Below, in pieces: positions 3,624 through 57,441 of a DNA stretch of 64,000 bases. The DNA comes from Escherichia coli (lineage in GTDB: Bacteria > Pseudomonadota > Gammaproteobacteria > Enterobacterales > Enterobacteriaceae). Within the stretch, counting starts at the first letter, position 1, and each line of letters opens with the position of its first letter. The position numbers and the translations under genes were made by a program. The DNA lies in the NCBI RefSeq assembly GCF_013315695.1, contig NZ_CP054353.1, one strand, 5' to 3'. The notes beneath the pieces are model-generated. The model saw nothing but the letters and a program-made list of their open reading frames with translations. It made no database searches and was not told where the DNA came from.

Positions 3624-4904
3624 ATGAAATTACTTATTCTGGGCAACCACACTTGCGGCAATCGTGGCGACAGCGCCATCCTGCGCGGCTTACTTGATGC
3701 CATCAACATCCTCAATCCACACGCCGAAGTGGACGTGATGAGCCGCTATCCGGTCAGTTCTTCCTGGCTGCTCAACCGCCCGGTAATGGGCGATCCGCTG
3801 TTCCTGCAAATGAAAAAACACAACAGCGCGGCGGGCGTTGTCGGGCGCGTTAAAAAAGTCCTCCGTCGCCGCTATCAGCATCAGGTATTGCTCTCACGCG
3901 TCACCGACACTGGCAAGCTGCGTAATATCGCCATCGCCCAGGGATTCACTGACTTCGTGCGCCTGCTGTCAGGTTACGACGCCATTATTCAGGTCGGCGG
4001 ATCGTTTTTTGTCGATCTCTACGGCGTGCCGCAGTTTGAACACGCGCTTTGCACTTTCATGGCGAAAAAGCCGCTATTTATGATTGGTCACAGCGTTGGT
4101 CCATTCCAGGATGAGCAATTTAACCAACTGGCGAACTACGTTTTTGGTCACTGCGACGCGCTGATCCTGCGCGAATCGGTCAGCCTTGAACTGATGAAAC
4201 GCAGCAATATCACCACCGCAAAAGTCGAACATGGCGTCGATACTGCGTGGCTGGTCGATCACCACACAGAAGACTTCACCGCCAGCTATGCCGTTCAACA
4301 CTGGCTGGACGTTGCCGCACAACAGAAAACGGTAGCAATTACCCTGCGCGAACTGGCACCGTTCGACAAACGTCTCGGCACCACTCAGCAAGCGTATGAA
4401 AAAGCCTTTGCCGGGGTGGTCAATCGCATTCTCGACGAAGGGTATCAGGTGATTGCGCTTTCCACCTGTACGGGCATCGACAGCTATAACAAAGACGACC
4501 GCATGGTGGCGCTCAATCTTCGCCAGCACATCAGCGATCCTGCCCGTTACCACGTGGTGATGGATGAACTCAACGATCTGGAAATGGGCAAAATTCTGGG
4601 GGCCTGTGAACTCACCGTCGGTACGCGCCTGCACTCTGCCATTATCTCGATGAACTTTGCCACTCCGGCGATTGCCATCAACTATGAACATAAATCCGCC
4701 GGGATTATGCAACAACTGGGGCTACCAGAGATGGCAATTGATATCCGTCATTTATTAGACGGCAGCCTGCAAGCGATGGTTGCGGATACCTTAGGCCAGC
4801 TTCCGGCACTGAACACGCGACTTAACGAAGCCGTCAGTCGCGAACGTCAGACGGGAATGCAGATGGTGAAATCTGTGCTTGAACGCATCGGGGAGGCGAA
4901 ATGA
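3624..4904 (+). CDS. wcaK: colanic acid biosynthesis pyruvyl transferase
   Basis: 426-aa ORF, N-terminus MKLLILGNHTCGNRGDSAILRGL matches remembered WcaK; synteny. Confidence 0.85.
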   Translation: MKLLILGNHTCGNRGDSAILRGLLDAINILNPHAEVDVMSRYPVSSSWLLNRPVMGDPLFLQMKKHNSAAGVVGRVKKVLRRRYQHQVLLSRVTDTGKLRNIAIAQGFTDFVRLLSGYDAIIQVGGSFFVDLYGVPQFEHALCTFMAKKPLFMIGHSVGPFQDEQFNQLANYVFGHCDALILRESVSLELMKRSNITTAKVEHGVDTAWLVDHHTEDFTASYAVQHWLDVAAQQKTVAITLRELAPFDKRLGTTQQAYEKAFAGVVNRILDEGYQVIALSTCTGIDSYNKDDRMVALNLRQHISDPARYHVVMDELNDLEMGKILGACELTVGTRLHSAIISMNFATPAIAINYEHKSAGIMQQLGLPEMAIDIRHLLDGSLQAMVADTLGQLPALNTRLNEAVSRERQTGMQMVKSVLERIGEAK

Positions 4905-43263: not shown

Positions 43264-43292
43264 CAATGAGGGTTGCCCGGCAACCCTCATTG
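43264..43292. terminator. 12-bp-stem hairpin after yeeX (no clear U-tract)
   Basis: caatgagggttg-cccgg-caaccctcattg perfect inverted repeat 14 bp after the yeeX stop. Confidence 0.4.
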
Positions 43293-46484: not shown

Positions 46485-46496
46485 TGTTTGTAGTGG

Positions 46497-47747
<1,251 letters not shown>

Positions 47748-47785
47748 GTTTCCTCTGACTCGTGTCAGTCGGTCTCTGGTTGTAT

Positions 47786-47824
47786 CCACGGACCGCACTC
47801 TTGACATAAGAGTGCGGTCCGTGG
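47786..47824. repeat. perfect 17-bp inverted repeat with 5-nt loop
   Basis: ccacggaccgcactctt-gacat-aagagtgcggtccgtgg, 40 bp outside the IS3 end; no adjacent U-tract. Confidence 0.6.
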
Positions 47825-49250
47825 AAAACGGAGTTGAAAAAATGGTGTCTGAAAGAAGGTACCATCATTGCGATGACAAACACTTTGGCGTGGATAATGT
47901 AATTAATTGCTGAAATTGACCGTATATGCGGTAAGACTCATATCAGTATCAGGTCCGGTTAATTGCTGATACTGACATAAACTTTTTACAAAAGGATGAA
48001 TGCAGAAGGTTACTCTAATGGCCAGAGTGATGACAATGATGGTCAGACGTTGACCTGCAGAAACTGCATTTTAATTGGTCTATAAAGTCTGCAAGAGGAA
48101 TCAGGGTCAGATCAGTGAGTCTTATCGCGGCCCGAAGCTATGACTGAAAGAAGGCTGGATACAGAATTGCAACAATTTGGCAATGTCAGAACACAGAAGC
48201 TTTGCAAGCAGGTGAAAGGTTATGTCTAGAAAAAGGAGTATATCAGAATACATCTACTGATGTACAAAACACAACAATAGCTTCATGATATATAAATACG
48301 TGATGACGAGTGGTACTCCGCATGGTTATTTAACTTCTCAGCACCACTAATGATCCTGAGCAACTTCGTATTTGGGCCATTGCCATGGAGTAGAAAGCTG
48401 TGTCTGAGAATGCAGAATTTGAGAAAAGAATTCGCTTTCTTGGAGAGCTTCTGAAAATGGCACGCTAACAACGCTTTGTTAAAAAATGTGAATCACTTGC
48501 CGAGGCTGCATTTTCTATTCGAGGAGAATGTTGACGTAGATATTACAGAAATCTCAGCGCATCAGGATAAACTGCTACCTTAGGTCAACCACCAAAAGAA
48601 AATACAATACGTCCAGTTTGTATGCCTTTAATAACACATCTTTTAAATGTTGAAGAATTATCCCGCCTGCTGAAGAACGTTGCTCTGAGTGTGATAAACC
48701 TTTTTATTCTTGATGATGTCAGCGAGAAGATGGAATATATCCCCGACTGGGTCGTGGTTACCCGGTTAAACATCTGGTGGCGCTAATAAATCTGGCAAGT
48801 CACATTCTGTTGAATGCTGTGACAGTGCCTTACCGAGAGAGCGAAATTGTGGTGTTCTAGTGCATAGTCGCCACCATTCCGGATAATTTTATTGCGTTGT
48901 TTTACAACTTCTTTTACAGCGCAGATCTGTCGCTGACGTTGAATCAATAGCCTGGATTTCAGAACACAATGCCCGTTTGCTGGTTGGTCCGGCAGTAGCA
49001 TTAATTCATTATCTGAATGAAATGTGTCAATCCACAGAAACCGCTGTCAATGACGCATTTTGTCGGACGTTAACACGAGAAAGTCTGGCTATTCCGTAAT
49101 GCCATCTTATTTCGTAATGGATTGAGAATGCTGGATTTTTAATTATATTACGCGCAGTATTAATCGCGTAAATGTTTTGCGGTCAGCAACGGTGGGGGAT
49201 CCATTGCTCTGTTCAATGAATACCATCATACATTTGAATCAGGAGTCGGT

Positions 49251-56988: not shown

Positions 56989-57441
56989 AATTTTAGTTTT
57001 GAGACATCTCTATGAGTCTCAGGACAGTTAAAAAATAAAAATTATTTTTACCCGGTCACTTTGTAAAAAAGTGGCCGGGTTTTTGATTTCTGTGTTTCGT
57101 GCGCTTAATCGAGTCTCACGCTTCAGTGAGCAAATTGCCCCTCCCCAACAGACATCACGATTCACAAGGTCAAAAATTCTGTTCCATGAAGTACCGTACA
57201 AAGATAAAGAGAAAAATGCCTTATGCGGGATGTAGCTGTCGCGTCTTTATCGGGAAACTATACGTAATTGCCACTTTGTCTTCGGTAATCAGAAAAAGAA
57301 GACCTGCCATTTTAATAAATATTATTTCTCTGGGAACGGGGATTTTTTATAAGCAATATGACGAGTTAAACATTATATTTTTATAAGGATTATATGAGAT
57401 TAAAGAAATCTGCCATAAAGACAGATTTCTTTAACATATAA

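Follow-up and report, generated by a model that had tools for sequence, protein, structure and literature searches.

We observed a perfect palindrome in the 64-kb stretch of E. coli DNA analysed here (the window), between a variable island that carries yeeS, yeeT, yeeU, cbtA and an antirestriction gene and the conserved cobU-cobS-cobT-ldtA-tRNA-Asn block. An IS3-family element lies to its left, and the remains of an IS1111-type and an IS66-family element overlap it or follow on its right (Table 1). The two arms of 18 nt each are 100% complementary and enclose the 5-nt loop GACAT, giving 41 bp in total. The initial annotation had recognised the perfect repeat and its loop, but had set the arms at 17 nt and the whole at 39 bp. 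The palindrome is the longest of the perfect short-range inverted repeats of the window. Two others were recorded, one at 43264-43292 (14-nt arms CAATGAGGGTTGCC / GGCAACCCTCATTG, spacer 1 nt) and one at 57400-57434 (13-nt arms TTAAAGAAATCTG / CAGATTTCTTTAA, spacer 9 nt).

Table 1 Coordinates of the palindrome and of the neighbouring features in the window
Feature	Coordinates	Strand	Description
IS3-family element	46489..47746	-	IS911-like ends TGTAGTGG...; strain-specific insertion or junction
Decayed 3' tnp fragment of a DEDD transposase gene	47778..47962	+	Final ~57 codons, interrupted by two stops; native stop codon 47960-47962
Left arm of palindrome	47785..47802		TCCACGGACCGCACTCTT; outer 7 nt are native I-H-G codons; inner 11 nt match the right arm exactly in reverse complement
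Loop GACAT	47803..47807		GACCA in relatives; native orientation kept, within Thr-Lys codons
Right arm of palindrome	47808..47825		AAGAGTGCGGTCCGTGGA; native K-E-x-G-P-W codons; outer CCGTGGA identical in most relatives
Smaller hairpin	47940..47978	+	ATATCAGTATCAG / CTGATACTGACAT; 13-nt arms; spans the stop codon of the relic; sequence conserved in most intact relatives
Decayed 3' non-coding region (seekRNA region in IS1111-type elements) and right subterminal repeat-like end	47963..48226	+	Aligned to intact relatives
IS66-family relic (tnpB end and downstream)	48204..48764	+	Abuts the right end of the IS1111-type relic

The predicted folding energy of the hairpin is -36.6 kcal/mol for RNA of the plus strand and -36.5 kcal/mol for the minus strand, and -24.4 and -24.0 kcal/mol for the two strands as DNA. 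Its stability z-scores range from -9.7 to -10.8, and none of 200 shuffled sequences was equally stable (0/200). With its GC-rich stem and short loop the structure is like an intrinsic terminator, but it has no U-tract on either strand, its 18-bp stem is much longer than typical, and no gene end adjoins it. The stem is followed by AAAACGGAG on the plus strand and by ATACAACC on the minus strand, neither of which contains a T-run, and a terminator scan made no call at the hairpin; the earlier judgement that this is not a typical intrinsic terminator was borne out. The DNA to the right of the palindrome has a G+C content of 38-46%. An Rfam scan returned no family at its gathering score over the hairpin, and the sub-threshold matches there (mir-5444, 21.5 bits against a threshold of 90; CRISPR-DR47, 19.7 bits against 39) are chance. 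A literature search for the arm sequence yielded nothing relevant.

The palindrome begins 39 nt past the right end (47746) of the IS3-family element, just outside it as initially annotated. This adjacency is incidental. Nissle 1917, NU14 and many other strains match the window at 100% identity from 47747 rightwards, and the palindrome is therefore not part of the IS3-family element; that assignment was rejected because strains without this IS have the sequence that starts at 47747 joined directly to other DNA. The junction with the element is common to only 4 of 5426 complete genomes, and no 3-bp target duplication flanks the element at 46489-47746. On the minus strand, 47556-47678 gives a full-length match to the Rfam family isrC (RF01387; 145 bits against a gathering score of 39). 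This match falls within orfA of the IS3-family element, towards the 5' end of the gene, so that the "isrC Hfq-binding sRNA" model matches IS-derived sequence here.

In Nissle 1917 (L001), the gene adjoining the palindrome encodes an intact 715-aa TonB-dependent receptor on the minus strand. It is the counterpart of the K-12 yoeA pseudogene, and we take it to be the UPEC haem receptor Hma. The gene normally follows the palindrome but is missing from the window, where the IS3-family element stands in place of the sequence found at 3834-3960 of the Nissle locus L001. In strains that keep the gene, the palindrome stands 206-246 nt upstream of the receptor ATG, and in between lie promoter-like hexamers and a Fur box close to the consensus (GATAATAATTATCATTA; in Nissle ~50 nt ahead of the ATG). 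Because these sites separate it from the ATG, the palindrome is not in the hma 5' UTR, and we rejected it as a 5' UTR element of hma/yoeA. We also compared, together with their flanks, receptor homologues of 78-87% protein identity from an unassigned metagenome contig, from Salmonella and from a MULTISPECIES Enterobacteriaceae protein whose closest named relatives are in Kluyvera. The palindrome never occurs in the flanks of these homologues, and DNA similarity ends ~100 nt upstream of the ATG. The homologues in Salmonella and in the Enterobacteriaceae contigs (closest named relatives Kluyvera) are located within full haem-uptake operons.

The region 47746-47992 beside cobU is a hot junction. 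Breakpoints across strains fall at 47746 and 47760 (IS3 family), 47792 (IS3), ~47815 (IS1), 47836, 47977 and 47992. At five loci (L004, L005, L035, L036 and L037) the leftward DNA differs each time, comprising hma, php/ggt remnants, CP4-44-like genes and a group II intron. Further right, at ~48760-49100 and just upstream of cobU, RefSeq annotates in identical genomes an IS4-family transposase fragment and a C-terminal "cobalamin biosynthesis protein" fragment, which are probably the remains of a lost cbi operon.

The surrounding IS1111-type sequence and its intact relatives

A distant DNA search against plasmids showed that 47921-48764 is ~70% identical to sequences beside IS66-family tnpB genes and an "IS110 family transposase". 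When the IS110-family transposase of plasmid CP057768, which carries the Pfam domains DEDD_Tnp_IS110 (PF01548) and Transposase_20 (PF02371), was compared with the window by tblastn, its residues 284-337 of 339 aligned with 47792-47953 on the plus strand (50% identity, E 5e-8). This was the single significant match in the window, and the alignment runs straight through the palindrome, pairing TALLT*ECGPWKTELKK of the window with AALLTKEPGPWITELKK of the transposase. A DNA profile of six full elements matched 47793-48209 by nhmmer (envelope 47778-48231), covering profile positions 1091-1516 of 1561 with an E value of 6.5e-55. The 200 nt to the left of this match scored no better than shuffled controls. 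On these alignments, the palindrome sits at the 5' edge of a truncated IS1111-type relic, ~47778-48226, of which approximately the last 450 bp survive. The surrounding DNA had been described as non-coding, which holds for its present state but not for its origin, as the palindrome lies inside a transposase pseudogene fragment. Likewise, the suggestion of a relic of another element proved correct in that this is the decayed C-terminal coding region of an IS1111/IS110-family transposase, but not in the sense of a transposon end.

ISEc11, of the IS1111 family in the IS110 superfamily, is 1443 bp long, and its 3' non-coding region encodes a seekRNA (PMC11187229). The ~450 bp around the palindrome correspond by homology to the transposase C-terminus, the 3' non-coding region and the right end of IS1111 elements such as ISEc11. 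The non-coding part (47963-48226) is 57-74% identical to the 3' non-coding region of 9-11 intact relatives, and the right end, GGTGAAAGGTTAT, is by eye identical to the subterminal repeat of the relatives at ~8 of 13 positions; the left end is absent. The relic is unlike IS1111 elements in that it retains only the 3' third, contains stops and a frameshift, has lost part of its RNA pairing and is single-copy and immobile. Within the window it lacks both catalytic domains and keeps the C-terminal tail only, and it is found as an essentially single-copy, truncated sequence with stop codons at one locus per genome, not as an intact mobile multi-copy element. Of the 60 consensus RNA pairs of the non-coding part, the relic has 18 broken and each intact relative 0-4; a domesticated seekRNA downstream of the hairpin was rejected on this count. 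Several stems in the non-coding region of intact IS1111-type copies show compensatory changes. The yoeA/hma-cobU junction of E. coli K-12, O157:H7 and B2 strains thus holds a previously unannotated IS1111-type fragment with a dead seekRNA region.

The comparison set comprised 11 intact relatives, which came from plasmids, IMG/VR contigs and one E. coli chromosome. One of them (L007) was delimited in full. It measures 1428 bp and has tnp at positions 137-1156 of the element, a non-coding region of ~260 nt after it, and 13-bp subterminal inverted repeats (ATGAACGCATCCC / GGGATGCGTTCAT) that are also present in most other relatives. The intact relatives share the gene and non-coding layout of ISEc11 but differ from it in target sequence. 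In three cases (L007, L008 and L016, from plasmids and one chromosome) the intact IS1111-type element is inserted in an IS66-family element, between tnpB and tnpC. The flanks of these nested elements, ...CCTGGA / GAGCAG..., are different from the published ISEc11 target GTGAAAATACTG.

The nearest intact relatives of the relic have 59-67% DNA identity and 52-57% protein identity to it; the best from the representative library reach 52-54% and the best from plasmid tblastn 52-57% protein identity. No closer relative was present in plasmids, 50%-identity protein representatives, viral contigs, species genomes or metagenomes, and a word-index search with the conceptual translation of the relic gave no candidate.

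Next to the native sequence, the palindrome site of the window differs in a defined way. In the 11 relatives the site reads TAT(C/T)CA(C/T)GG-NGCAAGGGCG-GCAGCATTACT-GACCA-AAGARCCNGGN-CC(G/A)TGGATA and encodes F-I-H-G-A-R-A-A-A-L-L-T-K-E-P-G-P-W-I. In the window it reads TATCCACGG-(10 nt missing)-ACCGCACTCTT-GACAT-AAGAGTGCGGT-CCGTGGAAA, with an in-frame stop TAA at 47807-47809 where the relatives have Lys AAA. The inner left 11 nt stand where the relatives have 21 nt after TCCACGG, equal to a 10-nt deletion plus five substitutions. The inner 11 nt of the right arm are identical to one relative (L023) at 9 of 11 positions, compared to 6 of 11 for the left arm and the relatives. The right arm has TGC (Cys) at a Pro codon that is conserved in all relatives, and the GCA paired with it in the left arm is ancestral-looking.

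In the relatives themselves this site forms an inverted repeat that is weak and imperfect. The outer stems of 7-9 bp, TATCCAYGG / CCRTGGATA, consist of the F-I-H-G and P-W-I codons, and in the register of the relic 7-11 of 18 positions form Watson-Crick pairs, versus 18 of 18 in the relic. The 56-nt segment of the relatives has a minimum free energy of -13 to -26 kcal/mol (z -0.2 to -4.7), compared to -36.6 kcal/mol (z -10.8) for the relic. Three of the relatives fold well at the site (z -2.8 to -4.7) and two have z near 0. We detected no covariation in the native stem among the relatives, in which all four combinations of His CAY and Pro CCR codons are present. The native site occupies ~967-1025 of the intact element, and the seekRNA-sufficient fragment of ISEc11 is bp 1127-1397. 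A conserved functional stem in active IS1111 elements is unsupported, given the four codon combinations, the spread of z-scores and a position outside the seekRNA-sufficient fragment by analogy with ISEc11. The perfect palindrome was in no intact IS1111-family member examined.

Occurrence in other genomes and metagenomes

We assessed how widely the palindrome occurs. Within the window, the 41-mer and either arm occur once, even when up to 3 mismatches are tolerated, and shuffled sequences never matched the observed count. At least part of a 114-nt query (47747-47860) matched in 2760 of 5426 complete E. coli genomes, among them K-12, O157:H7 and B2 strains. The stretch is essentially present once per genome and always at the same locus, and no more than two genomes have it in two places. 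In the plasmid and phage searches, the palindrome turned up only on records containing the same E. coli segment at 98-100% identity. The proposed check for repeats in the same and other genomes showed a single-copy palindrome at one chromosomal locus beside cobU, and the arm was found nowhere else that would place it in a known repeat family.

An exact scan with the 17-nt arm over one genome per species (100,044 species) returned 2 single, non-palindromic matches in unrelated MAGs, which are chance. A scan of metagenomes returned 78 stretches, made up of 17 palindromic loci, 6 copies of the same locus with one exact arm and 55 single arms. All 17 palindromic loci are the same E. coli locus, with flanks at least 98.3% identical and the same truncated relic at profile positions 1091-1516. 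The 6 one-arm copies are IS3-interrupted copies, one contig end or variant alleles. The 55 single-arm stretches have no detectable similarity to the locus or to the IS profile and are presumably chance matches. Neither the 100,044 species genomes nor the metagenome collection contained an intact IS carrying the palindrome.

Natural variation at the stem is sparse. A C to T change at 47796, which produces a G.T mismatch, is present in strain DFK.1 (L013) and one metagenome contig, and a 2-nt deletion in the left arm is present in a metagenome contig of ~1x coverage, where it is possibly a sequencing error; both variants are uncompensated. Since the flanking diversity of E. coli at this locus is only ~1%, nothing can be read from the fact that the stem hardly varies. 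Among other strains, IS3 cuts the left arm at 47792, in about 1/8 of carriers as judged from evenly spaced samples, and IS1 cuts the right arm at about 47815. These insertions and the uncompensated variants indicate that the palindrome is dispensable.

Origin of the perfect stem

Template switching is an established E. coli route from imperfect to perfect inverted repeats and has been proposed for the genome-wide excess of long perfect repeats (PMC5941160, PMC7202029). We consider it probable that the palindrome arose as a template-switch "correction" of a quasipalindrome in a dead IS1111-type gene, as a mutational by-product with no function. An IS1111-type insertion sequence of the IS110 superfamily once stood beside the present cobU-island junction, and its truncated end survives there in a heavily decayed state. 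A nascent strand ending in TATCCACGG could have paired, via the native stem, with CCGTGGATA. It would then have used the opposite arm as template for 11 nt before switching back at the loop, leaving the perfect 18-bp stem and 5-nt loop. One templated patch of this kind is enough to remove the 10 nt, to introduce the five substitutions of the left arm and to make the complementarity perfect.

The left arm looks like a derived copy of the right arm, because the right inner arm resembles L023 more closely than the left inner arm resembles the relatives. From the pairing of the right-arm TGC with the left-arm GCA, a second conversion in the opposite direction may also have taken place. We infer the switching mechanism, its direction with the left arm copied from the right, and the lack of present function from these comparisons; the pre-event sequence is reconstructed from relatives of 59-67% DNA identity, which do not fix the number and direction of the switches. 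Inheritance plus drift cannot explain 18 paired positions out of 18, because the genuine RNA stems of the same relic have decayed. By a rough hand estimate, the probability that drift alone, at ~38% divergence, made all seven non-complementary inner pairs complementary while the others were retained is ~1e-6. The relic therefore contains its own internal control, with genuine RNA stems decayed and the palindrome perfect.

The site agrees in several respects with the quasipalindrome template-switch mutations described previously (PMC7202029, PMC5941160). The relatives have an imperfect repeat at the corresponding position, the derived sequence reproduces the opposite arm exactly in reverse complement, one patch can supply the whole multi-nucleotide change (10-nt loss and five substitutions), and the orientation of the loop is kept. 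Unlike the studied events, this one is deduced from ~60-65% identical relatives and not from a direct ancestor, and it lies in a pseudogene. It also differs from most events in reporter assays in that the interior of the repeat was shortened by 10 nt, a larger change, and in that TGC in place of CCN hints at reverse conversion. The palindrome is a fresh example of an already known kind of event. It provides a natural illustration of how template switching can make a long perfect inverted repeat from ordinary coding sequence, with the intact gene family as the "before" state.

A related scenario differs from the template-switch explanation in its trigger only, as templated copying is still needed. 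The IS1111-type gene would have been broken at this point or close to it, and the resected end would have folded back on partial complementarity, been extended and been joined to hma-promoter DNA, so that the palindrome would mark the truncation junction and not an internal correction. The left arm is indeed the exact inverted copy of the first 18 nt beyond the loop, and no more than roughly 10-40 nt separate that arm from the point where recognisable homology of the relic stops, since the IS profile begins at 47793 (envelope 47778) and nothing similar is found in the 200 nt leftward. However, the native ...CTGTTTATCCACGG of the relatives aligns with TATCCACGG and probably also with CTGGTTGTA, which suggests native sequence to the left of the arm, and in the native frame the left inner arm still encodes T-A-L-L, compared to A-A-L-L in the relatives. 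We regard such a junction as unlikely. That the active parent IS already possessed the perfect hairpin, for instance as an mRNA or single-stranded DNA structure that the relic preserves, is very improbable. Some complementarity exists at the site in 11 of 11 relatives, the three that fold well would fit this account, and no close relative of the relic was found that would show the contrary. Against it, the 10-nt gap would frameshift the last ~57 codons, which are conserved among relatives, and no intact element with the arm occurs in the genomes and metagenomes scanned. The absence of covariation, the two relatives with z near 0 and a position outside the seekRNA-sufficient fragment by analogy with ISEc11 (PMC11187229) also argue against inheritance.

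We found no evidence of function for the hairpin, as argued from its distribution and context. A cis element could in principle stabilise an RNA or direct its processing, form a roadblock to transcription, or serve as a protein- or cruciform-binding site, and would influence the divergent hma/yoeA receptor gene or transcripts that cross the cobU-island junction; the initial annotation had likewise considered a protein-binding site or an RNA structure. The hairpin is very stable on both strands, is perfect in nearly all carriers and stands 206-246 nt upstream of the hma start codon where the gene is kept. However, the Fur box and promoter-like sites lie between it and the hma ATG, and the similarity shared with the hma loci of Kluyvera, Salmonella and the metagenomic homologue of 87% identity reaches only to ~100 nt upstream of the ATG, short of the palindrome. 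It has neither a U-tract nor an Rfam match, is single-copy, is absent from about half of E. coli genomes and is interrupted by IS3 or IS1 in other strains. In the present window hma is gone, and conservation carries no weight at ~1% E. coli diversity. We therefore consider a cis-acting role highly doubtful. A member or remnant of a repeated palindromic family, such as REP/BIME-like sequences, MITE ends or transposon terminal repeats, has next to no probability and was rejected, as was a transposon end. Like REP/BIME, the palindrome is GC-rich and intergenic, lies in an IS-rich region and has an IS inserted in some strains, but it is present essentially once per genome at one locus only, it has no family consensus, its arm is absent from the rest of the window, from other species and from metagenomes beyond the locus, and plasmid and phage matches are the same E. 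coli segment only. A stable hairpin near an IS end readily invites annotation as a transposon end, a regulatory site or the terminator of an sRNA, and these assignments can be set aside here.

We further considered that the hairpin is kept perfect by recurrent templated correction and acts as a structure-dependent fragile site that draws IS insertions and deletion end-points. The breakpoints at 47746, 47760, 47792, ~47815 and 47836 bear on this idea, and the truncation of the relic adjoins the hairpin. We hold this to be very unlikely; if it were true, the hairpin would help to generate the highly variable island junction beside cobU.
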